NCBI GenBank assembly: GCA_034717975.1
Contig: JAYEMF010000037.1
Span: 1 to 20,379, forward strand
DNA from: Campylobacterota bacterium
GTDB taxonomy: Bacteria > Campylobacterota > Campylobacteria > Campylobacterales > Sulfurimonadaceae
Reading direction: 5' to 3'
DNA: 20,379 bases
The position numbers and the translations under genes are program-made. Positions within the stretch are counted from its first letter, which is position 1. Each line of letters starts with the position of its first letter. The notes under the pieces are model-generated. The model ran no database searches. It was given only the letters and a program-made list of their open reading frames with translations, and was not told the DNA's origin. Positions 2,420 through 20,368 of this stretch are shown here, piece after piece.

Positions 2420-2519
2420 TTCAAAAAAGGGAAGAGGACGTATGGCTTTAACAATAGGAATTCCCAGAGAGGTGCATAGCGGAGAGAGACGTGTCGCAGC
2501 AACCCCTGAAACATCAGAA
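2420..2519 (+). repeat. Direct repeat copy 2 (native pntA leader and 5' end)
   Basis: 94/100 identical to 1..100. Confidence 0.95.
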
Positions 2520-4016
2520 GAGCTGCAAAAGCTTGGGTTTAGTGTGCTGCTTGAAACCGATGCCGGGGAGAGTGCCAGTTTTCCTGATGATCTCTACCGG
2601 GAAGTGGGTGTTGAGATTATCAGTGATACAAAAACACTATGGAAAAGATCAGATATTATTCTGAAAGTTCGCGCGCCTGAAGTACATCCTCAGCTTGGCA
2701 TACATGAGGCAGAGCTTTTGGAGGAGGGAGCGTATCTGCTCAGCTTCATCTGGCCGGCACAAAACCCGGATCTGATGGAGAGACTGGCTGAGCGTAAAGC
2801 AACTGTACTGGCCATGGACAGCGTTCCGCGAATATCCAGGGCGCAAAAGCTTGATGCACTCAGTTCGATGGCCAACATTGCCGGATACCGTGCAGTAGTG
2901 GAAGCGGCCAGTCAGTTTGGACGGTTCTTGACCGGGCAGATCACTGCAGCCGGAAAAGTGGCTCCGGCCAAAGTCCTGGTGATTGGTGCCGGTGTAGCAG
3001 GTCTGGCCGCTGTAGGAACTGCGAACTCCATGGGAGCCATTGTACGTGCTTTTGATACCCGTCCCGAAGTCAAAGAGCAGGTAGAGAGTATGGGTGCAGA
3101 GTTCCTGGAACTCGACTTTGAGGAAGATGCCGAGGGTACGGGCGGTTATGCCAAAGTTATGAGCCCTGAGTTTATCAAGGCTGAGATGGAGCTCTTCGCC
3201 AATCAGGCGATGGAGGTCGATATTATCATTACTACGGCATTGATCCCGGGCAGACCGGCACCGGAACTGATTACCGAGGGAATGGTCGAGTCCATGCGCG
3301 AGGGAAGTGTCATTGTAGATCTTGCCGCTGAAAACGGGGGTAACTGTACCTTGACCGAACCGGGTGAAGTGGTAGTCAAACACGGTGTGACGCTGATCGG
3401 TTACACTGACCTTCCAAGCCGACTTCCCACCCAGTCGAGCCAGCTCTACGGAACCAATCTTCGGCATATGCTCAGTGACCTCTGCAAAGAGAGAGATGGA
3501 GAGATGACGATAGATATGGATGATGAGGTTATCCGCGGTACTACTGTTATCAGGGAGGGTGTTGTTACCTGGCCGCCTCCCGCGATAAAGGTTCCTGCCG
3601 CTCCCAAGCCGCAGGAGACCTTGAGTGAAACTGTAATGAAAACTGAAGAGAAGAAGAGCAGCAGATACGGAACTGCACTGCTTATGATCTTCGGTATTGC
3701 TGCAATGGCGGGACTCGGCTATGTCTCACCCCCGGACTTTCTGGCCCATTTTACGGTCTTTGTATTGGCCTGTTTTGTAGGTTATCAGGTGGTCTGGAAT
3801 GTAACACCTGCCTTGCATACACCGCTGATGAGCGTAACGAATGCCATAAGCGGCATCATCGTCCTGGGTGCACTGGTACAGTTCTCCGCAGAGTCCTCGA
3901 CTACAATTATGCTCTTGTCCCTGGTGGCGATTCTGGTTTCGGCTATCAATATCAGCGGTGGTTTCCTTGTAACCCATCGTATGTTGAAGATGTTTCAAAA
4001 AGATGAGGAGAAGTGA
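2442..4016 (+). CDS. pntA: NAD(P)+ transhydrogenase (Re/Si) subunit alpha, single-chain type
   Basis: [34 protein letters not shown]...FDTR, GGYAK loop, C-terminal TM part with [13 protein letters not shown]. Confidence 0.98.
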
Positions 4017-5410
4017 TGAGTGAAGGTTTACTGACTGTTGCATATATTATTGCCAGTGTTCTATTCATCTTGAGCCTCAGAGGATTGAGTCATCAGGAGA
4101 GTGCCCGCCGTGGTAATATCTATGGTATGTACGGTATGCTTATTGCCATTGCGGCCACTGTTTTGGGTGGTGAATCAGCCGGCGTGGAAGGAGTGCTTGC
4201 TGCGATGATCGTCGGTGGCATCATCGGGGCCGTCGTTGCAACAAGGGTCGAGATGACCGGGATGCCTCAACTGGTTGCCATGTTACACAGTTTTGTAGGG
4301 TTGGCGGCAGTGCTGGTAGGTTATGCCAATTACCTGGATCCGGAAGCTGCTTTGCACTTCAGCGGGGTGGGAAAAACGATTCACGATGTGGAGATTTACC
4401 TTGGAATTTTGATCGGTGCGGTGACGTTTACCGGCTCGCTGATCGCTTTTGGGAAACTGCAGGGTGTTATCGGCAGCAATCCTCTGCTTCTGCCGGCCCG
4501 TCATTGGCTCAACCTGGGACTTGGAGTGGCAACTGTCTGGCTAGGTGCCCAGTTTGTCAATGCGGATACGGTTTCTGAAGGAGCAACGCTTCTGGCGATC
4601 ATGACGCTGATCGCATTGGCTTTTGGTGTGCATATGGTAATGGCCATCGGCGGAGCAGATATGCCAGTAGTAGTTTCAATGCTTAACAGCTATTCGGGCT
4701 GGGCCGCTGCGGCGACAGGTTTTATGCTTTCGAATGACCTGCTGATCATTACGGGTGCATTGGTCGGAAGCAGCGGTGCTATTCTTTCGTACATTATGAG
4801 CCGTGCTATGAACCGCAGTTTTATCAGTGTCATTGCCGGAGGTTTTGGTACTGTTTCAGGAGAGGCTTCTGCCTCTGCAGTAGATGGTGAAACCATCTCC
4901 ATCGCCGCAGAGGAGACGGCAGAACTCTTAAGAGACGCGAAGCGGGTGATCATCGTTCCCGGTTACGGTATGGCGGTAGCCCAGGCCCAGCATCCCCTTG
5001 CGGAAATCACTAAAAAACTTCGAAACAGCGGGGTTGATGTACGTTTTGGTATTCACCCTGTTGCCGGACGGCTTCCGGGGCATATGAACGTGCTGCTCGC
5101 AGAGGCAAGAGTTCCTTATGATATTGTCCTTGAAATGGATGAGATCAATGCAGATTTTTCAGATACGGATGTGGTCCTGGTCATTGGTGCCAACGATACC
5201 GTAAACCCCTCTGCCATGGAAGACCCCTCAAGCCCAATTGCGGGAATGCCGGTTTTGGAAGTGTGGAAAGCAAAGAGTGTGGTAGTGATGAAACGGAGTA
5301 TGGCATCTGGTTATGCCGGTGTCGCAAACCCTCTCTTTTTCAAGGCCAATACCAGTATGCTGTTCGGCGATGCAAAAACGGGAGTTGATACCATACTTGG
5401 CAAGCTGTAG
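4016..5410 (+). CDS. pntB: NAD(P)+ transhydrogenase subunit beta
   Basis: [77 protein letters not shown] overlap with pntA and GAGGAG RBS (GTG 4013 is an alternative start). Confidence 0.98.
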
Positions 5411-5452: not shown

Positions 5453-5824
5453 TTATGATGCAGTCGATCCATGGGGCCAGAAACGGATCGCATTGCGTAC
5501 CTTTTCCACCCCCAGTTTTATACCGCTGTGACGCATGATCTTTGCTACTTTTTTCCACATTGGGCGTTCATAGCATGGGTTGGGGCATGCCCGGCATTTT
5601 GGTTTGTCGTCAAACGGGCATCCCTGAAGTCTGGCCATCCCGTATGCCACGGTTTCGGCACACTCCTCGCAAAGCAGCGCTTCAAGAGGTTCGGTACGTT
5701 CACCGGCGTACTTCAGCGTAATAGAATGGTTTTTTGTGGGAACATCCGTATGCTTGTCAGCACAATAGTGTGAAACAAACGTCGTTAATGTCGTCACTTC
5801 CTGAGTATATTTTTCAAATGTCAT
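5453..5824 (-). CDS. YgbA-family ('nitrous oxide-stimulated promoter') Cys-rich protein
   Basis: YC..KH, LCEEC, Y...RL..CPF..KPKC..CP.PCY......V.KIMRHSG signature. Confidence 0.85.
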   Translation of the reverse strand: MTFEKYTQEVTTLTTFVSHYCADKHTDVPTKNHSITLKYAGERTEPLEALLCEECAETVAYGMARLQGCPFDDKPKCRACPNPCYERPMWKKVAKIMRHSGIKLGVEKVRNAIRFWPHGSTAS

Positions 5825-5981: not shown

Positions 5982-7292
5982 TTATTTTGATAAGTGAAAT
6001 CCAAATATTTCAAATTGAAGATAAAATACTCCAACAGAAATCATATATCCAAAAGCTATTGTCCAGGCATATTTCATATGCGTTCCAACGGTATAAATAC
6101 CCCGCAATCTCCCCATGACACCGACACCGGCAGCCGATCCAAAACTTATGAGCGATCCACCGATGCCTGCGGTTAATGTTATGAGCATCCAATGTGTTGC
6201 ATCCATTGCCGGATTGGCTTTGAGTACGGCAAACATAAGGGGTACATTGTCAATGATTGCAGATATGACACCAATCAGAACATTGACCCAGAAAGGGTCC
6301 AGCATATCATAAATATTGGCTGCAATGGCAATATAACCGATATAGGCCAGTCCGGACACCGCTGCCAAAAGTCCGAAGAAAAAGAGCAGTGTATCATTTT
6401 CAATTTCCGCCATTCGGCGATAAAGCCATATGCGCTCTTTGAACTTTATTTTCAGATAACTGGAGTAAAAACCAAACAGTCCAAGCCCCATCATCATGCC
6501 CCAGAAAGCCGGCAAATGCAATATCTGGTGCATTGAGACGGCCATAATAATAGTCGCTATGCCAAGAAAGACGATGCCTACTCCCCCTTTTTTTATTTTT
6601 GCGTTTTCCGGTCTTTTGCATGCACCTGTATTATCCATGTCTGTTGGAGAGCCGCAAGGCAAATAGTTCGATAGCAGATACGCTGTCACAACCCAACCGA
6701 TAAAACTGGCGGGAAACAGAAACAGGAATTCAGCAAAAGTACCTTTTCCCGCCGTCCAGACCATCAGTGTGGTGATATCTCCAAAAGGGGACCAGGCACC
6801 CCCGGCATTGGCGGCAACGACAATATTGATAGCTCCTAAAATCAAAAACTGCCTGTTGTGGTGTTCGAGTGTCAGCAAGACCGTTGATAAAACCAGGGCC
6901 GTTGTTAAATTGTCTGCGACCGGACTTAAAAAAAATGCTATAAAACCTGTCACCCAAAAAAGTTTCTTATAGTTGTATCCCTTTTGCAGCAATTTGAATT
7001 TCAATGCTTCAAAAACACCTCTTTCTATCAGTGATTCTATATAGGTCATCGCGACGAATAAAAAGAAATAGATAGAGGCTATCTCAACGATTAAATGATG
7101 TATATTCTCTTGCAACGGGGCGATATCAAGCCCATAAAAAATGTAGTGCCCTGCAATTAAAACATAGATCAGCGTACCGGCCAAAAGTGCCGGTTTTGCT
7201 TTATTGACTGCAATTTTTTCTTCAAATGCAATCATTAGATAGGCGATTATAAAGAGTAAGACAGAGGCGTATCCGACAAATGAATCAACCAC
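5982..7292 (-). CDS. nhaD: Na+/H+ antiporter NhaD
   Basis: FFLSPVADNLTTAL, AANAGGAWSPFGDITTLM, SAIIDNVP, GIGGSLISFGSAAGV motifs; GTG at 7292 lies 6 nt after GGAG (ORF track start TTG 7298). Confidence 0.92.
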   Translation of the reverse strand: MVDSFVGYASVLLFIIAYLMIAFEEKIAVNKAKPALLAGTLIYVLIAGHYIFYGLDIAPLQENIHHLIVEIASIYFFLFVAMTYIESLIERGVFEALKFKLLQKGYNYKKLFWVTGFIAFFLSPVADNLTTALVLSTVLLTLEHHNRQFLILGAINIVVAANAGGAWSPFGDITTLMVWTAGKGTFAEFLFLFPASFIGWVVTAYLLSNYLPCGSPTDMDNTGACKRPENAKIKKGGVGIVFLGIATIIMAVSMHQILHLPAFWGMMMGLGLFGFYSSYLKIKFKERIWLYRRMAEIENDTLLFFFGLLAAVSGLAYIGYIAIAANIYDMLDPFWVNVLIGVISAIIDNVPLMFAVLKANPAMDATHWMLITLTAGIGGSLISFGSAAGVGVMGRLRGIYTVGTHMKYAWTIAFGYMISVGVFYLQFEIFGFHLSK

Positions 7293-7307
7293 AGGCAACT
7301 CCAGACT

Positions 7308-8462: not shown

Positions 8463-9482
8463 ATGCTTACTGAAAAGATGTTTGAAATGACAGGTATTGT
8501 TCAAAGGTTTTTTTCACATTTTTCCAAAAGATATCTGGATGACAGAAAGGCTCTGCTTGAAGCAGTCCGCAAAGACGGAAAAGCTTTGAAATATACCAGT
8601 GCAATACTGCAGGCAGATAGAGATATTGTACTTGAAGCCGTTAAAAATGATGGATCTGCATTGAAGTATGCAAGCAAAGAACTGCGTGCCGATAAAGAGG
8701 TGGTCCTCGAAGCCTATAGAAACGATTCCCAGGCATTCGAATACGCCGATAAAACGCTACAGGAAGATAAAGCACTTATTATCAAAGCCGTTAAAAATCA
8801 TTGCAATGTTCTGAATTTCGTAAACAAGGAAGTCGAAGGTGACAGGAATGTTATTCTTGAAGCTGTCAGGAACAACTGCGTGGGTATGGAATATGTCAAT
8901 CCTGTTTTTCGTTCAGATAAAGAGATCATCCTTGCGGCTGTTAAAAATTCTGTCACTGAATTCAGGTATGCCAGCACAGAACTGCGTTCTGATAAAGAGG
9001 TGGTGCTAGAAGCAGTCAGCCATTTCGGTGCTGCATTAAAGAGTGCGGACAAAGTGCTGCAAGCAGACAAAGAGGTGGTACTTGCGGCTGTGAAAAATAA
9101 CGGCTACGCATTGGAATTCGCCGATAAAGCATTGCAAGCGGATAAAGAGGTTGTTATGGAAGCCCTCAGACACGCCGGTTTGGCATTGGAGTTTGCCAGT
9201 GAAGCGCTAAAAGCAGACAGAGAAGTGGTTGTGATGGCAGTCAAAACACATCATGGCCGTGCTCTGGAGTTTGCCGACAAAGCACTTCAGAAAGATAAGG
9301 TGATAGTATGCGACGCAATTAAAAACAGCGGTTTGAAACTCGAATTTGTACATTCTGAACTAACAGCAGACAAAGAGGTGGTGCGTGAAGCCGTTAAAAT
9401 CGATAGCCAGGCATTAAGATATGCAAGCAAAGCACTGCAAGAAGACAAGTCCCTGATCGCTCTGGCCGCCGGGAGAAATTAG
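8463..9482 (+). CDS. DUF4116 repeat (helical solenoid) protein
   Basis: Twelve full 25-aa units (one of 26) plus a half unit, consensus ADKEVVLEAVKNxGxALEYAskxLq; AGGAGG RBS. Confidence 0.88.
   Translation: MLTEKMFEMTGIVQRFFSHFSKRYLDDRKALLEAVRKDGKALKYTSAILQADRDIVLEAVKNDGSALKYASKELRADKEVVLEAYRNDSQAFEYADKTLQEDKALIIKAVKNHCNVLNFVNKEVEGDRNVILEAVRNNCVGMEYVNPVFRSDKEIILAAVKNSVTEFRYASTELRSDKEVVLEAVSHFGAALKSADKVLQADKEVVLAAVKNNGYALEFADKALQADKEVVMEALRHAGLALEFASEALKADREVVVMAVKTHHGRALEFADKALQKDKVIVCDAIKNSGLKLEFVHSELTADKEVVREAVKIDSQALRYASKALQEDKSLIALAAGRN
8538..9479 (+). repeat. Degenerate 75-bp coding tandem repeat (~12.5 units)
   Basis: Recurring GC(A/C/G)GA(T/C)AAAGAGGT(G/T)GT-like words at 75-nt multiples, matching the protein repeat. 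Confidence 0.85.
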
Positions 9483-9491
9483 GGTTTTGAG

Positions 9492-11024
9492 ATGGATATA
9501 AAAGAGCATGGTATTTTTACCCAAAATCTTCTGAGGTCTCTGGGAACAGATGAGAAGACGCAGCTTATCGAAACTCATATCTCTACGATAATTTTGAGTG
9601 GTGATCTGGCATACAAGCTGAAAAAACCGGTCGATTTCGGTTTTTTGGACTACTCGACACTGGAGAAACGGTACAAAAACTCTCTTGAAGAGGTGCGCAT
9701 CAATGAAGGTTTTGCACCAGAACTCTATCTGGGCGTGATACCGATAACCGGTTCGATCGAAGATCCCCGGATAGATGGTGAAGGCAGAGTGTTGGATCAT
9801 GCTGTGAAAATGCGCCGTTTCGAGCAAAATTGTCAGCTGGACAATATGGTCGATGAAGGCAGACTCGATATGGACTTAATGGACAAGGCTGCGCAGATGA
9901 TAGCCGCCTTCCATAAGAGAACAGAAGCAGCAGCTCCTCAAAGTGAATTTGGAGCGCCTGTGCGGGTGCTTGCGCCGATGGAAGAAAACTTTGAACTTCT
10001 TAAAGCAGTGGGATCTTTTCAGGCAAAGATCGATGTAGTCGAACGTTGGACTTACGATGGTTATAAGAGGTTTAAACCGCTGCTGAAATCTCGCAAAGAG
10101 AACGGCTTTATCCGCGAGTGCCACGGTGATATGCATCTTCACAATATGGCAATGTTTGAGGGTAAACTGATCATGTTCGACGCGATCGAGTTCAATCCCT
10201 ATCTCAATCATATAGATGTTATCAGTGATCTTGCATTTTTGCTGATGGATCTCGAGTATCGCAGCCTGCATCAACTAAGCCGCCGTGTTTTAAACCGCTA
10301 TCTTGAACTGACCGGTGATTACGAAGGGGTCAGAGTGCTTGACTTCTATAAAACCTACCGTGCTATGGTCAGGGCCAAAGTAGCCGCACTCAGAGCATCA
10401 CAGGATATGCTAGAGAGTGAGCGTCAGAGCGTAATGGATGAAGTCGAAAGATATATTGATCTGGCACTGAGCTATACCCGGGAAAAAGAGCCCTTTATGG
10501 CCATTACGCATGGCTGTTCCGGATCGGGTAAAAGCACCTTTGCCCAGATGCTGGTTGAAACACATGGTGCTCTGCGCATCCGTTCGGATGCGGAACGGAT
10601 GCGGATGTTTGAGAGAAGTGATGAGAGTGGTTTGGAGGAAGGCATATACACCCCTGATACGACCAAAGCAACGTATGAGCGTCTTCTTGAACTGGCTGTC
10701 TCTGTTTATGAAGCCGGATATTCTGTCATTGTGGATGCAACATTTTTGAAGCAGTGGCAGCGCCGGCTCTTTATTGAACACGCTTCGACGGCTGAGGCTC
10801 CCTTCTGTCTTTTCACGATGGCGTGTGATCATGAAGTGATGCGAAGCAGGGTAGAGCACCGTTCAGAAGAGGGTTCGGATATCTCAGAAGCGGACCTGGA
10901 AGTACTGCAGCTGCAGATTAAAAGTGCCGAACCGCTTTCGGAGAGTGAAAGAGAGGTCGAAGTGACAATCGACTGCTCCTCAACAGCATCGATGCGTCAA
11001 TCGGCTGCAAGAATAATGCAATGA
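9492..11024 (+). CDS. Bifunctional APH/kinase-like plus AAA_33 (gluconate kinase-like) P-loop protein, Rv2004c-like
   Basis: IETHIS, AYKLKKPV.FGFLDYST, RECHGDMHL.N, FDAIEFN, ID..SD.AFL.MDL; Walker A GCSGSGKST, RSDAER, VDATFL, SDISEA. Confidence 0.88.
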   Translation: MDIKEHGIFTQNLLRSLGTDEKTQLIETHISTIILSGDLAYKLKKPVDFGFLDYSTLEKRYKNSLEEVRINEGFAPELYLGVIPITGSIEDPRIDGEGRVLDHAVKMRRFEQNCQLDNMVDEGRLDMDLMDKAAQMIAAFHKRTEAAAPQSEFGAPVRVLAPMEENFELLKAVGSFQAKIDVVERWTYDGYKRFKPLLKSRKENGFIRECHGDMHLHNMAMFEGKLIMFDAIEFNPYLNHIDVISDLAFLLMDLEYRSLHQLSRRVLNRYLELTGDYEGVRVLDFYKTYRAMVRAKVAALRASQDMLESERQSVMDEVERYIDLALSYTREKEPFMAITHGCSGSGKSTFAQMLVETHGALRIRSDAERMRMFERSDESGLEEGIYTPDTTKATYERLLELAVSVYEAGYSVIVDATFLKQWQRRLFIEHASTAEAPFCLFTMACDHEVMRSRVEHRSEEGSDISEADLEVLQLQIKSAEPLSESEREVEVTIDCSSTASMRQSAARIMQ

Positions 11025-11058: not shown

Positions 11059-11301
11059 TCACTGCCGTTCAGAGAAATAGTCCGCCATATGTTCCAGTGT
11101 ATCTACCTTGCCGTAGTCGGCCTCGGGGACTTCCACACCAAGATGTTCATTCAGGGCGGTAAGCACTTTTAAAAAATCGAAGGAGTCGATCTCCAGAGAG
11201 CGCTGAAGGTTCTCATTCGGCTCGATCTCCTCTTCTTCGATCTCCGGGGCGATCTCCAGAATCTGTTCGATGATGGTGTTCTTGATCTCTTCTTTGGTCA
11301 T
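11059..11301 (-). CDS. Acyl carrier protein (phosphopantetheine site Ser40)
   Basis: 80 aa, very acidic, LEIDSFDF motif, GVEVPEADY; ATGA overlap with E2. Confidence 0.9.
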   Translation of the reverse strand: MTKEEIKNTIIEQILEIAPEIEEEEIEPNENLQRSLEIDSFDFLKVLTALNEHLGVEVPEADYGKVDTLEHMADYFSERQ

Positions 11302-12458
11302 AGTAGTTCCTCCGGTTTTTGTAGAAAGTTGTTCAGTCTGTCCAGAAACAGTGCTCCGGTGCGGCCATCAGTGGCACGGTGATCACCGGCGATAGTCGCC
11401 TGCATAACTTTGCGTACACTCAGTGCATCGCCCTCGGCCCATGGGGTATCGCTAATACGGCCCAGTCCCACAATCGCAACTTGGGGAGGGTAGATGACAC
11501 CATAGACGCGTTCCACACCCAGGTCACCCAAATTGGTGATAGTCACGGTCTGCTGCGTCATCTCGCTGCCACGCAGTTTGCCGGAGCGGGTGCGGGTGAT
11601 CAGGTCGCCCAGTGAGTGCATGGTCTCATCGAGGTTCATCTGCTGTGCATTGAGCAGTGCCGGGGTGATCAGCCCTCCCTTGCGAAGTACGATGGCAATA
11701 CCGGGATTGACCGCTTCGCTTACACGATGCGTATCTTCCTGCCAAAAGCCATTGAGCTCCGGTACTTCCTCCAATGTCCGTACAACGGCACGGATCAACA
11801 AGGCGGCGGGCAGAATACGATCTTTGATACTGCGTTTGCCATTGAGTGCTGCAAGCCACTCCAGGGCCGGTGTCATATTGATCGAGGTGGAGAGATAATA
11901 GTGGGGGATCTCGGCATTGGAGCGGCTCATGGCTCTGGCAATAGCCTGGCGTATGCCGTCTGATTCAGGGATTTTGTGCAGAGTTGCCGCTGCAGCCTCT
12001 ACCTTGCTGAGCTGTATGGTTCCGCCTGTTCCAGATGCAAGTTCAGCCAGGTCAACACCCAGTTCACGGGCTTTTCTCCGTGCTGCCGGCGAGGCTTTGA
12101 CCCTCTCTCTGGAAGAGAGCTCATTGGCGGGCATTAGTGCAGGCTCTTTTGAAGGTTCCGGCTCTAAAGGTTTCGCTTCCGGTTCCGGGAAAGTGTCGGC
12201 AGCCGACTCTTCCAACTCTTCGTTTTCAGAACGGATCAGGGCCAGCGGCATACCCACGGCACACTCGGTCTCCTCTTCGACGAGAATCTTCTCCACAATA
12301 CCATCTTCGAATACCTCGATCTCGATGACCCCTTTGCTTGTCTCCACTTCGGCGATCACCTGACCCTTTGTTACATGGTCACCCTCTTTGACCATCCACT
12401 CCATCAAAACGGCCGACTCCATGTCAGCCCCAAGGCTCGGCATTTTAAATTCGCTCAT
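11298..12458 (-). CDS. pdhC: 2-oxoacid dehydrogenase E2 (dihydrolipoamide acyltransferase), single lipoyl domain
   Basis: Lipoyl domain EVETSK42[32 protein letters not shown] and catalytic DHRATDG. Confidence 0.9.
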
Positions 12459-13438
12459 GCTTCCTCCATCAGTTGACGTGCCGTGGCAACGATCTTTTCG
12501 GGCTGCGGAATGGCGGCGTCCTCGAGATGTTTGGCGTAGGGGAGAGGGACTTCGGCGGTGCAGACTCTTCGCATAGGAGCATCAAGTTCAAAAAAGGCCT
12601 GCTCGTTGATGCGTGCCATGATTTCGGCGGAGATACTGCCTGACTTCCATCCCTCATCGACGATCATTACCCGGTGTGTTTTCCTGAGGGACTCCATGAT
12701 AGCCGCATCATCAAGCGGTCGCAGGGATCGCAGGTCGATCACTTCGGCGTCAATACCCTCTTCTGAGAGTGTCTCAGCCGCTTCCAGCGCTTTAAAGAGG
12801 TTGATACCGTAGGCGAGAATCGTCAGATCTCTGCCCGACCGATGGAGCAGGGATTTTCCGATAGGCAGGGGTGTGGCTGAGGTGTCGAGCGTCCCTTTGG
12901 CGTTATAGAGCAGGGAGTTTTCGAAGATCAGTACCGGATCAGGATCGGCCAGTGCCAGACCAACCATATCGTAGGCATCCTGTACGGTTGCAGGGGTAAG
13001 CACTTTGAGACCCGGAATGTGGGCATACCACCCCTCAAGGCTGTGTGAGTGCTGGGCGGCCAGCTGTTTGCCGCCGCCGGTCGCCATGCGGATTACCAGA
13101 GGAACATTGAACTGGCCGCCAGACATATGGAGCAAGGTGGCGGCGTTGTTCATGATCTGATCGAGGGCCAGCAGGCTGAAATTTACCGTCATGATCTCCA
13201 CGATGGGGCGCATACCGTTCATGGCGGCACCGATACCCGCACCGGTAAACGCTGATTCAGAGAGTGGCGTATCGATGATCCGTTCAGCTCCAAACTCTTC
13301 TTGAAGTCCCATACTCACGGCGAAACAGCCGCCGTAACGGCCGACATCTTCTCCCATCAGAAAGACCCGTTCATCTTTTTGCATCGCTTCACGGATACTT
13401 TGGCGAACCGCTTCGCGGTAGGTACTGTTCTCACCCAT
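12455..13438 (-). CDS. pdhB: Pyruvate dehydrogenase E1 beta subunit (327 aa)
   Basis: [44 protein letters not shown] 13438 with GAGGAGG RBS preferred over the ORF-track start 13507. Confidence 0.92.
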
Positions 13439-14408
13439 TGTGCACCTCCTCAGAGTAGACGAATTTTTCAAGATCAGTGACGGGCTCCAGTGTGCCGTTT
13501 TCGGCAAATTTCACCGCCTCGTTAATGATCTCTGCGATCTCATCTTCGATCTCATCGCGATTGATCTTTGACCAGAGGTCCATCGCTTCAAGCCTGTTCT
13601 GAAATAGTACCAGAGGACCTTTCTTCTTCCACTCTTCGACTTCCGCTTTTTCACGGTAGAGTTCAGCATCAAACAGAGAGTGGGCGCGGAAACGGTAGGT
13701 AAGGCATTCGAGAAAGCGAGGGCCCTTTCCGGCGCGGATCTCTGCCACTGCTTCTTCAGCTGCCTCGGCAACATCGACGACACTCATCCCATCTACCTGT
13801 TTGGAACCAAGCTTATAAGCTGCTGCTTTGCGGGCGATATTTGTCTCCGACTCAGAGAACTCCAGGGCAGTTCCCATGCCGTAGCGGTTGTTTTCACAAA
13901 TAAAGAGCACCGGCAGTTGCCACAGAGCGGCGAGGTTTAAAGATTCGTGAAACTCTCCTTCGGCCACAGCGCCATCGCCAAAGAGGCAGACCGTGACCCG
14001 GTTGCGTTTCATCATCTTGTCTGCCATTGCCATCCCGACGGCCAGTGGCAGAGCGCCGCCGACAATGGCGCTGCCGCCGTAAAAGCGTGTTGCGGCATCA
14101 AAAAGATGCATGGAACCGCCCCGTCCGCGGGAGCATCCCTCCACCTTTCCGTACATTTCGGCCATGATGCTTTTGGCAGAGATCCCGCGTGCAAGAGCCT
14201 GTCCATGTTCTCGGTAGGTGGCAAGTACGGCATCTTCAGGGCTCAGTGCATGCATAACGCCCACCGCTATCGCTTCCTCTCCGATGTAGAGATGCAAAAA
14301 GCCCCGAATCTTCTCGCTGCTGTAGAGCTCTACGCACTTCTCTTCAAAGCGCCGGATCAATAGCATCTGCCGGTAAAATTCCCGGGCCAGTGTCAAATCT
14401 AAATCCAT
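13431..14408 (-). CDS. pdhA: Pyruvate dehydrogenase E1 alpha subunit
   Basis: [29 protein letters not shown] motif GDGA...[20 protein letters not shown]. Confidence 0.92.
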
Positions 14409-14419
14409 AGTTGCTCCTT

Positions 14420-16171
14420 TTAATCTTCCAAGGTGGAAATGTCACCCTCGGGCAGTCCCATCTCCCGTGCTTTAAGCAGCCGGCGCATGATCTTGCCGCT
14501 TCGGGTCTTTGGCAGGTTTTCCTGGAACTCGATCTCTTTGGGTGCGACTGCAGCTCCCAGCTTCTTGCGTCCGAAGCCGATCAGTTCGCGTCTGAGCTCC
14601 TCTGTGGCCTCAAAACCGGTTTTGAGCGAGACAAAGGCTTTGACCAGCTGGCCGATGATCGGGTCTGGCTTGCCGATAACACCGGCTTCTGTCACCGCCG
14701 GGTGTTCCATCAGGGCACTTTCTACTTCGAAAGGGCCTACCATATGGCCGGAGGTCTTGATGATATCATCGGAGCGTCCGACAAACCAGAAATAGCCCGC
14801 TTCATCCCTGTAGGCAAGGTCGCCGGAGATATACCACTCTCCGACAAAACTTTTTTTGTATTTCTCTTCATTATGAAGGTAGGCCCGGAACATGGAGGGC
14901 CAGCCAGCTTTCAGTGCCAGATCTCCCTCCTTGCCCGCTTCAGTGACCTCTGTAACGGTGCCATCATCATTTTGATGTACGATTGCAGCTTCAATGCCGG
15001 GAAGGGGCCTGCCCATAGAACCGGGACGTATGGTCTGAGAGATCAGGTTGGTGATCATGATCCCGCCTGTCTCTGTCTGCCACCAGTTATCGTGGATCGG
15101 CAATTTGAGTTTCTTCGCTCCCCAGACTACCGCTTCGGGATTGAGCGGTTCGCCGACGCTCTGGATCAGGCGCAGTCGGGAGAGGTCATACTCTTTCGTC
15201 GGTTCGGAGTCGATGCGCATCAGGCGTCGGATCGCCGTGGGAGCGGTATACCAGATACTGACCTGCTCATCCTGCAAAACACCGTACCACCGCTCGGCAT
15301 TGAACTCCGCTTCATCCACAACGTTAGTGACACCATGAATCCAGGGGGTGATGATGCCGTATGAGGTGCCGGTGACCCAACCCGGGTCGGCAGTACACCA
15401 GTAGATGTCATCGCTATGGAGGTCGAGTACGTATTGGCCGGTCATCCAGTGGGTGTAGACGGCTTTATGTACATGCACCACTCCCTTTGGCATTCCGGTG
15501 GTGCCGCTGGTGAAGTGGAGTATCGACATATCTTCAGGATCGGTGGGCGGAATCTCAAAGGTGTCAGAGGCCTTTTCCATCAGGCGGGGGAGGGAGAGAA
15601 CCTGTTCGCTCTCATCTTCTTCGGCATCGATCAGCAGGACATAACGAAGTTCCGGCAGCTGCTCGAGCAGGGGGCGTATCTTTTTTTTGAAGAGTCTCTG
15701 TGTCGTCAAGAGGGCTCTTGCATCGCCCCGCTGCATGCGCTGCAGTATGGGCTCGGGGCCGAACTGGGAGAAGAGCGGGCAGATGACGCTGCGGTTTTTC
15801 AGGATGCCCATGGCGGCGATGTAGAGTTCGGGCAGACGTGTAGAGAGGGTGAAGATACGATCGCCCTTTGAGAGCCCAAGTGATTGGATCACATTGGCGA
15901 ACCTGGCGCTCTCCTTTTTCATCTCGGAAAAGGTGTATCTTCTTTTTTTACCACTCTCTCCAAGCCATAACAGAGCGGTTTTGTCTGCGAGGGGACCATT
16001 GGCATGGCGGTCGATCGCTTCGTGGGCGATATTGAGCCCGCCTGAGGGCAGTCCCTCGAACACTTGGGCCACCGCTTCCCAGCTAAAGGCTTCACGTTCC
16101 TGATCATAGTCCGTCAGGTTCGGCTGAACTGGAAAATCCTCTGCTCTTTTTTCGATCCACTTCTCTTCCAT
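14420..16171 (-). CDS. acsA: Acetate--CoA ligase (AMP-forming), Bacillus AcsA-like, 583 aa
   Basis: [54 protein letters not shown] 16171 with AAAGGA RBS preferred over 16240. Confidence 0.92.
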
Positions 16172-16199
16172 CTTGCATCCTTTAAAAAGTCTGTTTTCA

Positions 16200-16237
16200 G
16201 GTTTTAAGGTAAAACCAATAATAACATATAATATAAT
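16200..16237. promoter_or_regulatory. Divergent promoter region: palindrome GGTTTTA-AGG-TAAAACC (16200-16216) and overlapping TATAAT hexamers (16227-16237, plus strand)
   Basis: Read directly in the 120-bp AT-rich spacer between acsA and the lipoylation operon. Confidence 0.5.
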
Positions 16238-16291
16238 CAAAAGAGATGTAATTGGTGTCTTTTTTGAATGCTTGTCCGATAACAGGAGGTC

Positions 16292-17074
16292 ATGATCAAA
16301 GCAAAAACGTGGCGGCTTATCGAAAGCGGGATTGGGCCTGCTGACTGGAATATGGCGCTGGACGAGGCGCTGCTGAACGGCTTCAGAGAGGGTGACCAGC
16401 CGATTCTTCGGCTCTATGGATGGGAACCGGCCCTGAGTCTGGGACGGTTTTCAAGTGTTCACAAGAGTGTGGATATGGAGAGGCTGGAGCAACAGCAACT
16501 TTCCTGCGTACGCCGTATGACCGGAGGAGGAGTACTGGTGCATGGCGGGGATCTCTCCTATGCGCTGGTCCTGCCCCGTAAATCCCTAAAGGACAGAGGG
16601 GTGCGAGAGAGTTACCGTTACCTGTGCCGGTTTCTCATCCGCCTCTATGAAAAGCTGGGCCAAAATGCCCATTTTGCCCGTGATCTGCAGCTCGAGGGCG
16701 GAAGGTCCGATATCTGTCTGGCTGATAATGAGGCCTATGATATTGTAATCGAAGGCAGAAAAATGGGTGGTAATGCCCAGCGTCATACCCGCCACATTCT
16801 GTTTCAGCACGGTAGTATCCCTATGAACGTGGATGAGTCACGCTTCAAACCACTTTTTTTGGGGGATTCCGGATTGGAGCGTGCGGCAACGCTTCAGCGG
16901 CTGGGAAACGAGGTGGCCTATGAAGAGCTTGCAGGCTTGCTGAGAGAGTCGTTCAGTGAAACGTTTGATGTGAATGTCGCGGAGGAGAATCTGCGTCCGT
17001 CGGAAGAGGAGCGTGCCATGGAGCTCTTGACGCAAAAATACAGCCGGCAAAGGTGGAACATCAATGGAGAATAG
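16292..17074 (+). CDS. lipM: Single-domain LplA-family protein, LipM-like octanoyltransferase
   Basis: [26 protein letters not shown]142...GRK157MGGNAQ, QHGSI; Cys-Lys spacing of 15 as in B. subtilis LipM; no LplA C-terminal domain; AGGAGG RBS. Confidence 0.7.
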
Positions 17075-17921
17075 AATTATGCGTAAACCGGAGTGGCTGC
17101 GTAAAAAGATCACACCGAGCGACCACAAAGCGATGGAGACCCTGTTGGCCGAAGGGCGACTCCATACGGTCTGTGAGGAGGCGATGTGTCCCAATATCAG
17201 TGAATGTTTTCGCCAGAAGCAGGCAACGTTTCTGATACTGGGCAATATCTGTACCCGCGCCTGCAGTTTCTGTGCCCTCAGCAGGGGAAGGCTTATGGCG
17301 CCGGACTCCGATGAGCCTGGAAATGTGGCTCAAACAGTCAGGCGGCTTGGACTGCGGCACGTGGTCATTACCAGCTCCACGCGCGATGATCTGAGTGACG
17401 GCGGTGCCGGGCACTTTTGTGAGACGGTACACGCCATTAAAGCCATCGATGACGCCATTACCGTAGAGCTGTTGATCCCCGATATGCAAGAAAACGAGGA
17501 GACACTCGCATTGGTAGCCAAGAGCGGAGCCGAGATTGTCGGGCATAATCTGGAGACGGTACCGCGCCTCTATCATGTGCGGAAGGGAGCGGAGTATGAA
17601 CGCTCACTGCGGGTACTGAAGATGCTCTCCTCTGTCAATCCCTCGATCGCGACCAAAAGCGGTATCATGCTCGGTTTTGGTGAACGTGACGACGAAGTGA
17701 TGAATTTGATGCAGGACCTTCTGGATGTGGGATGCGGGTATCTCAGTATCGGTCAGTACCTGGCTCCTTCGCACAATCATGCCGCGGTTGTGGAGTATGT
17801 AAAACCGGAGCGGTTTGAGTTGTTCAGAAAGCGCGGGATGGAGATGGGGTTTAAGTACATTAAAAGTTCACCCTATACGCGCAGCAGTTATATGGCGCAC
17901 GAATATCTGGAGGCAAGATGA
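17064..17921 (+). CDS. lipA: Lipoyl synthase (radical SAM)
   Basis: KPEWL, CEEAMCPNISEC (CX4CX5C), CTRACSFC (CX3CX2C), RDDL, HNLETV, GQYL.P, RSSY; alternative ATG at 17079. Confidence 0.97.
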   Translation: MENRIMRKPEWLRKKITPSDHKAMETLLAEGRLHTVCEEAMCPNISECFRQKQATFLILGNICTRACSFCALSRGRLMAPDSDEPGNVAQTVRRLGLRHVVITSSTRDDLSDGGAGHFCETVHAIKAIDDAITVELLIPDMQENEETLALVAKSGAEIVGHNLETVPRLYHVRKGAEYERSLRVLKMLSSVNPSIATKSGIMLGFGERDDEVMNLMQDLLDVGCGYLSIGQYLAPSHNHAAVVEYVKPERFELFRKRGMEMGFKYIKSSPYTRSSYMAHEYLEAR

Positions 17922-19264
17922 AAAAGTACGAAGCAGTGGTGATCGGGGCAGGTCCCGGAGGTTATGAAGCCGCATTGAAGTTGGCTGAAGCAGGTGTGAA
18001 GACCTTGCTGATCGATCGAAACAAAGAGCGTCTCGGCGGAACGTGCCTGAACGAGGGATGCATCTCTGCCAAAGCCTATCTTCAGAGTGCGGAGTATGTC
18101 TCAAAAGCCTCCCATTTCAGTGAGTGCGGTGTGGCGCTGGAAGTCAAGGGGTTGGACATGGCGCGTCTTGCAGAGAAAACAGTGTCGCTGAAGAATGAGA
18201 TCCGCTCGGGTGTCGTATGGCTGCTCGAACAGGCAGGGGTTGAGACGCTCTACGGCTCTGCATGTTTTATCGATGCCAACAGTGTTGAGGTCTCAGGCGA
18301 GAGGATCGGTTTTGAGAAGTGCATTATCGCAACGGGATCAGCAGTCCGGGAGATGCCGCAGCTGCCGCTCGAGGGCAAGCGCATTATCTCCAGTAAAGAG
18401 GTGTTTGAACTGGAGTCTCTGCCTGCCTCGATTACCATTGTCGGAGGAGGACCCATCGCGTGCGAATTTGCCACCTTTTTCACTGCTTTCGGCGTGGAGG
18501 TGACGATGATAGTACGTGGTTTACAGCTTCTCTCTGCAGAAGATAAGGATGTTGCCAAGGCGTTGTTGCGGGCCTTTAAAAAACGAAATATCAAAGTAAT
18601 CACCTCTGCCGCTGTTCAAAAGGCTGAAGTGAATGGGGAGGGCGTCGAGTTACTCATCGAGGCAGGGAGCCAGGAGCGTATCCGGAGTGAACTGCTGCTC
18701 TGTGCAAGCGGCCGTATCCCCTATACCGATGGTCTCCAGAGTGAAAATGCCGGAGTGGAGAAAAACGAAAAGGGCTTTATTGCGGTCGATGCATCGTTTC
18801 AGACGACCCGAAATCATATCTATGCCGTCGGGGATTGCATCGATACGCCGGCCTTTGCGCACACGGCGTATGCCGAAGCGAGGATCGCCGTGCAAAATAT
18901 TGTCAGCGGCGGAGCAGCCACCAACACCCATATTACCCCTTCCACCATCTACAGCGATCCTGCTGTCGCAAGCTGCGGCCTGAGAGAGAAGGAAGCCAAA
19001 GCGCAGGGGCGTGCCGTCGAAGTCAAAAAAGCCTTTTTCAAGGCCAATGCAAAGGCGAAGATCGAGGGGGATGACTCCGGATTTGCGAAGATGATCGTCT
19101 GCGCGGAGAGCGGTGTGGTCCTGGGCGCTTCAATCATCGGGGTCGAAGCAACGGAGATCATTCACGAAATGGTACTCTCTGTTGAGAAAAAGCTGACGGC
19201 TGAGGATCTTAAAGGGATGATCCACGCACACCCGAGCGTATCGGAGATTGTCAGTTGTCTATAG
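17918..19264 (+). CDS. lpdA: Dihydrolipoamide dehydrogenase (E3) with an NADP-type dinucleotide fold
   Basis: GAGPGG, GGTCLNEGCI redox disulfide, ATGS, YAVGD, ANAKA, HAHPSVSE; ATGA overlap with lipA. Confidence 0.9.
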   Translation: MKKYEAVVIGAGPGGYEAALKLAEAGVKTLLIDRNKERLGGTCLNEGCISAKAYLQSAEYVSKASHFSECGVALEVKGLDMARLAEKTVSLKNEIRSGVVWLLEQAGVETLYGSACFIDANSVEVSGERIGFEKCIIATGSAVREMPQLPLEGKRIISSKEVFELESLPASITIVGGGPIACEFATFFTAFGVEVTMIVRGLQLLSAEDKDVAKALLRAFKKRNIKVITSAAVQKAEVNGEGVELLIEAGSQERIRSELLLCASGRIPYTDGLQSENAGVEKNEKGFIAVDASFQTTRNHIYAVGDCIDTPAFAHTAYAEARIAVQNIVSGGAATNTHITPSTIYSDPAVASCGLREKEAKAQGRAVEVKKAFFKANAKAKIEGDDSGFAKMIVCAESGVVLGASIIGVEATEIIHEMVLSVEKKLTAEDLKGMIHAHPSVSEIVSCL

Positions 19265-20368
19265 TAGTGTTTCGAGTGCTTTCGACTCCAGGCCGAGTGC
19301 CTTGGCAACGGCAGGGTTGGTAACCGACCCGTTAAAGATATTGACACCAAGTGCGAGGGAAGAGTCATTTTTAATGGCATCGGGACACCCCTCATTGGCC
19401 AGTTTTCGTATATAGGGGAGTGTGGCATTGGTCAGAGCGACCGTAGCGGTTTTCGGGTACGCTCCGGGCATATTGGCCACGCAGTAGTGAAGCACCTCCT
19501 CCTCTATAAAAATCGGGTCGGTGTGGGTCGTCGGCCGCGAGGTTTCGGAGATGCCGCCCTGATCGATCGTAATATCGACCAGAACACTTCCTTTTTTCAT
19601 CTTCCGCAGCATATCGCGTGTTATCAGTTTTGGCGTCGTGGCACCTCCATGGATCAACACCGTACTGATGACAACATCCGAATCCGGCAGCAGTTCACGA
19701 AGCATTTCCGGAGAGTAGAGGGCTGTTTTAGCGGAAGGAAGTACTTTTTGCAGCTGTTCCAGTTTTGGTGCTGAACGGTTCAGTACGGTCACGTCCGCAC
19801 CCATACCGATGGCTATTTTAGCCGCGTTAAACCCGGCATTGCCGGCACCGATGATCAGGACATTCGCCGGTGCCACCCCGACAGCACCGCCTATGAGGAT
19901 ACCTTCACCGCCCTGGTAACGGCTGAGATGACAAGCCGCAACCGACGGCGCCATCTTACCGGCTATCTCGCTCATCGGTTTTAGCAGTGGAAGCAGGTTG
20001 TCAGATGCGACGGTCTCGTAGGCGATGGCGCAGACTCTTTTTTCGATGAGAACAGAGACCAGCTCCGGCAGCGGTGCGAGGTGCAGGTAGCAAAAGAGGG
20101 TATGGCGTTCACTTAAAAGGTCATACTCGGATGGCTGCGGCTCTTTCACCTTGACGATCAGTGTCGCCCGGGCATAGAGTGTTTCGGCACTTGTTAGTAC
20201 TTCTGCACCGGCATTGCGGTATTGCGCATCACTGAAACCGCTCCCCTCTCCGGCACCGCGCTGCACTAAAACGGTGTGGCCGTCCTCAATGAGCTGTGCC
20301 ACATTGAAGGGTGTGGCACCAACGCGAAACTCATCTGTTTTCACCTCTTTGGGAATACCGAGTGTCAT
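19259..20368 (-). CDS. ald: Alanine dehydrogenase, with N-R-S replacing the NAD-determining Asp
   Basis: GIPKEVK..EFRV..TP, KVKEP, YLHLA, IAYETV, LPLL.PMSEIAG, DITIDQGG..ETSRPTTH, HYCVANMPGA; AGGAG RBS at the window end. Confidence 0.95.
   Translation of the reverse strand: MTLGIPKEVKTDEFRVGATPFNVAQLIEDGHTVLVQRGAGEGSGFSDAQYRNAGAEVLTSAETLYARATLIVKVKEPQPSEYDLLSERHTLFCYLHLAPLPELVSVLIEKRVCAIAYETVASDNLLPLLKPMSEIAGKMAPSVAACHLSRYQGGEGILIGGAVGVAPANVLIIGAGNAGFNAAKIAIGMGADVTVLNRSAPKLEQLQKVLPSAKTALYSPEMLRELLPDSDVVISTVLIHGGATTPKLITRDMLRKMKKGSVLVDITIDQGGISETSRPTTHTDPIFIEEEVLHYCVANMPGAYPKTATVALTNATLPYIRKLANEGCPDAIKNDSSLALGVNIFNGSVTNPAVAKALGLESKALETLL

Follow-up and report, generated by a model that had tools for sequence, protein, structure and literature searches.

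The window analysed here, a stretch of 20,379 nucleotides from a sulfur-oxidising Campylobacterota bacterium of the Sulfurimonadaceae, closes with ald, whose start codon lies 11 bases short of the window end and which is the last gene of the stretch (Table 1). Its product, Ald, carries the Pfam domains AlaDh_PNT_N (PF05222, the N-terminal substrate domain) and AlaDh_PNT_C (PF01262, the C-terminal Rossmann domain) and scores 438 bits against TIGR00518, the NCBIfam equivalog for alanine dehydrogenase (AlaDH; cut-off 391.85), a model against which its relatives in the clade described below score 420-441 bits. Solved AlaDHs are the best phmmer matches of Ald among PDB sequences (E 1.6e-110 to 2e-92), and an AF2 model built from a 97-sequence alignment (A1) has a mean pLDDT of 97.4 and finds the holo enzyme of M. 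tuberculosis as its top Foldseek match (2vhw_E; TM 0.98, rmsd 1.0, 371 columns). PDB entries 9vae and 9wns were rejected as AlaDHs, being the non-catalytic Thermus AlaDH-like protein. The closest named homologues among the matches listed come from Sulfurimonas and other Sulfurimonadaceae, and Ald is the only AlaDH above the TIGR00518 cut-off in its source genome (2.52 Mb, 149 contigs, 99.9% complete).

Table 1. Features of ald and comparators in the window (window positions)
Feature	Position	Strand	Evidence or remark
ald, 369-aa L-alanine dehydrogenase, AlaDH/PNT family	19259..20368	-	TIGR00518, Pfam, AF2 model, Foldseek
Catalytic K75 (KVKEP)	20144..20146	-	Invariant in A1 and in 120/120 clade members
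Catalytic H96 (YLHLA)	20081..20083	-	Invariant in A1 and in the clade
K130 in L-L-K-P-M-S-E	19979..19981	-	Glu in the sister D-type clade; adjoins S133
Glycine-rich loop G174-A-G-N-A-G179	19832..19849	-	GAGNAG in 120/124 tips; G-G-G-V-A-G in the sister D-type clade
N197-R198-S199, last residue of Rossmann strand beta-2 and the next two	19772..19780	-	Replaces Asp-x-x; sequence, alignment, model
Y218, directly after beta-3	19715..19717	-	Ser in 77/114 Asp/Glu-type sequences
Loop I239-H240-G241-G242-A-T-T-P246 after beta-4	19631..19654	-	Canonical form I-P-G-A-K-A-P; alignments
D269 of DQGG (Mtb D270)	19562..19564	-	Invariant in A1 and in the clade
lpd (dihydrolipoyl dehydrogenase), convergent neighbour of ald	17918..19264	+	6-base overlap with ald at its 3' end
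pntA, NAD(H)-binding AlaDH relative, internal comparator	2442..4016	+	Asp at the aligned position, no loop insertion

The catalytic motifs KVKEP, YLHLA and DQGG, described as intact in a preliminary description of this DNA, are all found. R15, K75, H96 and D269 are invariant in alignment A1, and these four residues together with E118, S133, Q270, N299, M300 and P301 are unchanged in all 120 clade sequences examined. By family score, modelled fold and invariant catalytic residues, the gene is predicted to encode a catalytically intact L-alanine dehydrogenase, which would interconvert pyruvate, NH4+ and NAD(P)H with L-alanine.

On the contig, ald and lpd are convergent where a pyruvate dehydrogenase (PDH) and lipoylation cluster ends. 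This PDH-type cluster (11298-19264) is complete, with E1 alpha, E1 beta and E2 on the minus strand and lpd on the plus strand, and is accompanied by an acetate--CoA ligase (14420-16240, minus strand), a lipoate-protein ligase-like gene (16292-17074) and lipoyl synthase (17064-17921); relatives in Sulfurimonas are usually described as rTCA autotrophs. A conserved Ald-PDH module was considered and rejected, as L009 and L048, the two nearest relatives at about 85% identity, alone retain the lpd/PDH adjacency, which is absent from seven other loci (L010-L013, L150, L152, L153). In L048 a divergent alpha/beta hydrolase gene lies upstream of ald, and other relatives have housekeeping genes beside ald, for instance those for RNase Z and an AmmeMemoRadiSam system; the neighbourhoods of relatives that we examined offer no functional clue. 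Farther along the same contig, about 14 kb from ald, pntA and pntB (2442-5410) encode the membrane transhydrogenase, which converts NADH and NADPH into each other, and we found no sign of a functional link between this pair and ald. The window also holds a protein of seven DUF4116 repeats (8463-9482), followed by a 510-residue protein with an AAA_33/zeta-toxin-like kinase domain (9492-11024), and a small minus-strand gene (5453-5824) that matches the 'nitrous oxide-stimulated promoter family protein' model at 149.5 bits (cut-off 148) and adjoins an NhaD-type antiporter gene (5982-7298, minus strand).

The cofactor-discriminating site of Ald

The last residue of strand beta-2 is the classical cofactor-discriminating position of Rossmann folds. 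In Ald the stretch '...GAGNAGFNAAKIAIGMGADVTVLNRSAPKL...' begins at G174 (codon 19849-19847), and the minus-strand codons AAC CGT TCA at 19780-19772 encode N197, R198 and S199; the modelled strand beta-2 spans residues 192-197, which makes N197 its final residue. In the phmmer alignments N197 is paired with the Asp of 8hyh (..TIIDLN..), of the Thermus enzyme 2eez (..TILDVN..) and of the M. tuberculosis enzyme 2voe/2vhw (..TVLDIN.., D198). Ald therefore lacks the Asp that in this family ends beta-2, binds the hydroxyls of the adenine ribose and underlies NAD specificity, and has the features of an NADP(H)-type site, namely a non-acidic beta-2 end (N197) followed by a basic and a hydroxyl residue (R198-S199). 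The sections available of PMC4691113 count Asp198 among the NAD contacts of MtAlaDH, and those of a preprint on the AlaDH-like protein (bioRxiv 10.1101/2025.10.31.685773) describe its Asp as forming hydrogen bonds with both hydroxyls (2'- and 3'-OH) of the adenine-side ribose 'in a similar manner to MtAlaDH'; V239 and the residue after the Asp pack against the adenine, and A240 touches the ribose through its main chain.

On these points the preliminary description holds up. Its coordinates, codons and text for N-R-S in place of the conserved Asp are exact on re-reading, as is its placement of GAGNAG from G174, and its statement that NAD-dependent AlaDHs carry an Asp that binds the adenosine ribose agrees with the alignment to the solved enzymes and with the portions of the literature cited above. 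It had named NRS in characterised NAD-dependent AlaDHs as evidence against its reading, and we find NRS in none of the solved AlaDHs aligned. Its reasoning from the whole N-R-S triplet survives in part. D-R-S is common among Asp-type AlaDHs in the sampled loci (Shewanella, Aeromonas, roseobacters and others), and in the tree set Arg at +1 and Ser at +2 each occur in 22 of 114 Asp/Glu-type sequences. Since Arg and Ser so often follow the Asp in ordinary enzymes, the discriminating change is the replacement of Asp by Asn and not the R-S that follows.

Two other enzymes of the source genome provide comparators for this region. The shikimate dehydrogenase AroE (TIGR00507, 212.6 bits, cut-off 200.2) has G-A-G followed by ...T-V-L-N-R-S, which bears out the earlier remark that N-R-S/T is also an AroE motif, and the glutamyl-tRNA reductase HemA (TIGR01035, 366 bits) has G-A-G followed by ...T-I-I-N-R-T; the spacing from G-A-G to N-R-S/T is identical in AroE, HemA and Ald (...T-V-L-N-R-S in Ald). 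The AroE and HemA families are NADP(H)-dependent, and the AroE residues corresponding to R198 and S199 bind the 2'-phosphate. The Pfam model Shikimate_DH (PF01488) matches Ald over residues 167-267 with 41.7 bits. Its scores are 39.8-44.4 bits for four clade members, 28.6 and 34.9 bits for two Asp-bearing clade members and 19.9-23.8 bits for four of seven D-type AlaDHs, the other three having no listed match; the higher scores in the clade are weak, circumstantial evidence favouring an NADP-type site.

A Sulfurimonadaceae clade and its surroundings

We placed Ald in a FastTree phylogeny (LG+gamma) of 253 sequences, comprising 119 of the 120 best homologues (one sequence of 331 residues was left out for length), full-length cluster representatives with K[VI]KEP and DQGG, and 29 loci from Campylobacterota with 11 from elsewhere, and was given three H. 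pylori-type paralogues as the outgroup. Nearly all of the best 120 homologues (68-100% identity) read N-R-S or N-R-T, and the 119 included here join five genome loci in one clade of 124 tips (support 0.991), where N-R-[S/T/G] is found in 121 (NRS 95, NRT 25, NRG 1) and the other tips read DCS, DRS and DSY, once each. A survey of Ald homologues for NRS, which the preliminary description had proposed as a check, thus finds the motif clade-wide, and sharing on this scale means that it is neither chance nor a read error. The branch next outward is a single sequence with NRT (P0121, support 1.0), and beyond it stand 13 AlaDHs of the same bacterial family that carry D-I-N (E-L-N in one), G-G-G-V-A-G and I-P-G-A (support 0.806). 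The position of these D-I-N relatives just outside the clade indicates that the N-R-[S/T/G] type arose inside Campylobacterota from AlaDHs of the ordinary D type. The DCS, DRS and DSY members are nested deep in the clade, where they combine Asp with G-A-G-N-A-G, H-G-G and K130, and may be reversions; because they keep the rest of the package, that package is compatible with Asp and need not concern NADP.

Beyond what the preliminary description reported, the change from Asp to Asn is accompanied by G-A-G-N-A-G, the I-H-G-G insertion, Y218, S235, P201 and K130. Taking as clade-specific any residue shared by at least 85% of the clade and present in no more than 10% of the 125 sequences outside it, we find nine such positions: C113, K130, S149, N197, P201, Y218, S235, H240 and the inserted G241. 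Six of them (197, 201, 218, 235, 240 and 241) lie in the AF2 model at the C-terminal ends of strands beta-2, beta-3 (214-217) and beta-4 (232-235); in Rossmann folds the adenosine half of the cofactor sits at the C-terminal strand ends. The loop from I239 to P246 differs from the canonical form by one inserted Gly and by His for Pro; G241 occurs in every clade sequence (100%), and 98% of the other sequences have a gap there. Its counterparts in the solved AlaDH-like protein are V239 and A240, the residues that contact adenine and ribose. K130 adjoins S133, whose equivalent Ser binds pyrophosphate according to the sections available of the preprint on the AlaDH-like protein (bioRxiv 10.1101/2025.10.31.685773).

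The three clade-specific residues away from these strand ends, C113, K130 and S149, would also fit a protein with a role in vivo other than that of an alanine dehydrogenase, one that acts on another 2-oxo acid or amino acid or serves as a non-catalytic nucleotide sensor, and the same preprint does describe, in the sections available, such a homologue in Thermus, the catalytically dead ADLP that senses NAD+ (bioRxiv 10.1101/2025.10.31.685773). We nevertheless hold such a role for Ald to be very improbable, as the clade shows no substitution at any of the catalytic and substrate-site residues checked, the TIGR00518 score exceeds the equivalog cut-off and the model superposes closely on the holo enzyme.

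Wider sampling puts the clade in perspective. Eighty AlaDH loci were drawn from one-genome-per-species contigs of many phyla, a broad sample of mostly distant AlaDHs rather than of clade members, and among the matches listed the beta-2 site is Asp or Glu in 76. The four non-acidic loci among those listed are N-R-S in a close Sulfurimonadaceae relative (L048), N-R-G in a Thermodesulfovibrionia MAG (L052), S-K-G in a Nitrospiraceae MAG (L053) and A-R-N in a Sulfurovum MAG (L065). The representatives of 50%-identity clusters (the best 150 of about 6900 homologues at E <= 1e-10) give 128 acidic, 19 non-acidic and 3 gapped sites, and several of the 19 non-acidic representatives within this best 150 also lack catalytic motifs. 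In the tree set, 11 Asp-less sequences fall outside the clade; they are not all independent of one another, and Arg stands at +1 in 8 of the 11, as against 22 of the 114 Asp/Glu types, while the G-G-G glycine loop is found in none of them as against 59 of the 114.

Such conservation bears on the reading of Ald as an ordinary NAD-specific AlaDH in which the motif is neutral, lineage-specific drift. The equivalog score of Ald agrees with that reading, but the prevalence of an acidic residue in the sampled loci listed implies that the site is under constraint, the replacement has itself been kept in nearly all tips of the clade together with co-located changes, and Asp-less mutants lose their NAD preference in the table of PMC5817062. 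We regard neutral drift as improbable.

Two further groups were noticed in passing. A second Asp-less lineage in the Campylobacterota, formed by L018 (G289:C69) and the Sulfurovum MAG locus L065, has G/A-R-N at the beta-2 end and a G-S-G-x-V-A loop and branches beside a Hydrogenimonas D-type enzyme. Separately, an AlaDH-family paralogue (L038-L044, from genus g21 and relatives, e.g. G050:C1:10641-11956) reads V-K-C-K-E-P, Y-L-D-L and C-D-L-G-G, has neither His96 nor Gln270 and shows 33-40% identity by blastp; judged by these residues it probably lacks standard AlaDH chemistry. In the phylum search it was matched at 35-38% identity in 40 of the 41 genomes of g21, a genus with 1.6-Mb genomes.

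Within the same family, an AlaDH match at E <= 1e-60 occurs in 104 of 201 sampled genomes and a match of at least 61% identity in 19, all of which carry N-R-S/T with H/Q-G-G. Four of these 19 genomes (G422, G439, G461 and G426) have a second copy with D-I-N and I-P-G-A at 51-52% identity by blastp. One genus (g8) contains genomes with the new type only, with the D type only, with both and with no match; the N-R-S/T-type ald is therefore an accessory, patchily distributed gene. In G461, which has both AlaDH types, the D-type ald (L151, G461:C1:2678200-2691500; 6071-7174, minus strand) lies about 1.8 kb from the nitrogenase gene nifK (8976-10547, minus strand).

Cofactor preference and its possible meaning

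AlaDH usually counts as an NAD enzyme, and we know of no EC entry for an NADP-linked L-alanine dehydrogenase. Biocatalysis groups have reportedly engineered NADPH use into the B. subtilis enzyme to couple it with NADPH-dependent alcohol dehydrogenases and transaminases. Our search of open-access full-text literature for a natural NADP(H)-dependent AlaDH returned engineered enzymes or unrelated papers only, and the available portions of PMC10401832, PMC5534079, PMC10976568 and PMC13276030 contain no natural NADP-type AlaDH. The same search yielded neither an assay of any clade member nor a characterised enzyme from the other Asp-less lineages.

Two engineered AlaDHs are listed in Table 1 of a review (PMC5817062). 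The B. subtilis double mutant D196A/L197R (Lerchner et al. 2016) has a ratio (kcat/Km)NADP/(kcat/Km)NAD of 18 at 0.90 of wild-type efficiency; the preliminary description had cited it as shifted towards NADP(H), and the table indeed gives its preference as reversed. Shewanella D198A (Ashida et al. 2004) retains 0.11 of the wild-type efficiency, and its ratio is 14. The Shewanella AlaDH in our sample (L116) reads D-R-S at the site, from which it follows that D198A would yield A-R-S, near to the natural N-R-S, and by its sequence this mutant is the closest published precedent for the clade.

On the evidence above, we put the probability at roughly 60% that Ald prefers NADPH to NADH, its adenosine pocket having been remodelled to accept the 2'-phosphate of NADP(H). 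As a plausible mechanism, loss of the carboxylate would end the repulsion of the 2'-phosphate, and R198 and S199 would bind it in the manner of the corresponding AroE residues; the widened loop and K130 would add room and positive charge, and H240 could make a further contact with the phosphate. By analogy with the NADP- and NAD-linked glutamate dehydrogenases (NADP-GDH and NAD-GDH), an NADP-linked Ald would be poised towards alanine synthesis in the cell.

Asn is still able to hydrogen-bond the ribose diol of NAD. This capacity, and the fact that other AlaDHs combine Asp with Arg and Ser at the next two positions, would suit dual specificity, in which both cofactors are used, NADH as well as NADPH or better, and Asn merely lifts the discrimination against NADP; the Drosophila ADH mutant D39N, changed at the equivalent site, has an NADP/NAD ratio of only 0.65, roughly dual use, in the table of PMC5817062. 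Removal of the Asp from two AlaDHs in that same table, however, sufficed to reverse the preference 14- and 18-fold, the clade has further conserved changes in the pocket, and the retention of a D-type paralogue in four genomes would be less expected if Ald served NAD well. Dual specificity appears to us a possible but rather unlikely account, and a pocket favouring NADPH remains the reading that we prefer.

If this preferred reading is true, some sulfur-oxidising Campylobacterota could spend NADPH to build alanine from pyruvate and ammonium, separately from a catabolic NAD enzyme. The source genome also encodes GDH, GOGAT and GS, so that an assimilatory AlaDH is possible but not required, and because these enzymes are present and the gene neighbourhood gives no clue, a role of Ald in ammonia assimilation is speculative. 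A wider proposal, which we consider unlikely on balance and put forward tentatively, is that the Asp-less AlaDHs of Sulfurimonadaceae, Sulfurovum and the Thermodesulfovibrionia and Nitrospiraceae MAGs form a recurrent, unrecognised class of anabolic NADPH-linked 'alanine synthases' of independent origins, fixing ammonium onto pyruvate beside a catabolic NAD-type paralogue. Were it true, it would be the AlaDH counterpart of the split between NADP-GDH and NAD-GDH and would give these bacteria a third primary route of ammonium assimilation. For biocatalysis, a natural, evolutionarily optimised clade of NADPH-type AlaDHs would, if confirmed, offer ready-made catalysts; it would equally be a natural experiment on cofactor switching, with one residue, loop remodelling and apparent reversions.

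Comparison with known systems

The AlaDH family and engineered mutants that use NADPH are already known; what is new is a natural AlaDH clade with an NADP-type motif, as far as motifs can define it. Ald resembles the NAD-dependent AlaDHs (EC 1.4.1.1, TIGR00518; M. tuberculosis Rv2780, 2vhw/2vhx/2voe; Thermus 2eez) in its two-domain fold, in 46-48% identity and in the catalytic residues, and differs from them in Asn for the beta-2-end Asp, the G-A-G-N-A-G loop and the extra residue of I-H-G-G, as well as in Y218, S235, P201 and K130. It shares with the engineered B. subtilis D196A/L197R and Shewanella D198A enzymes the loss of the carboxylate at the same site and an Arg at +1, but those enzymes were made in the laboratory by point mutation of D-type scaffolds and have Ala at the site, whereas the clade is natural, has Asn and shows additional loop remodelling.

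The other Asp-less lineages (N-R-G in L052 and P0126, S-K-G in L053, A/G-R-N in L065 and L018, N-R-S in P0138) are similar in having a non-acidic site, mostly with Arg at +1, in lacking G-G-G and, in most cases, in retaining the catalytic motifs, yet they form separate branches with neither the I-H-G-G insertion nor Y218. With the NADP(H)-type Rossmann domains of AroE and HemA, Ald has in common the G-A-G followed by N-R-S/T at the end of beta-2; that resemblance is confined to the dinucleotide-binding region, whereas the catalytic domain and the predicted chemistry of Ald are those of an alanine dehydrogenase.
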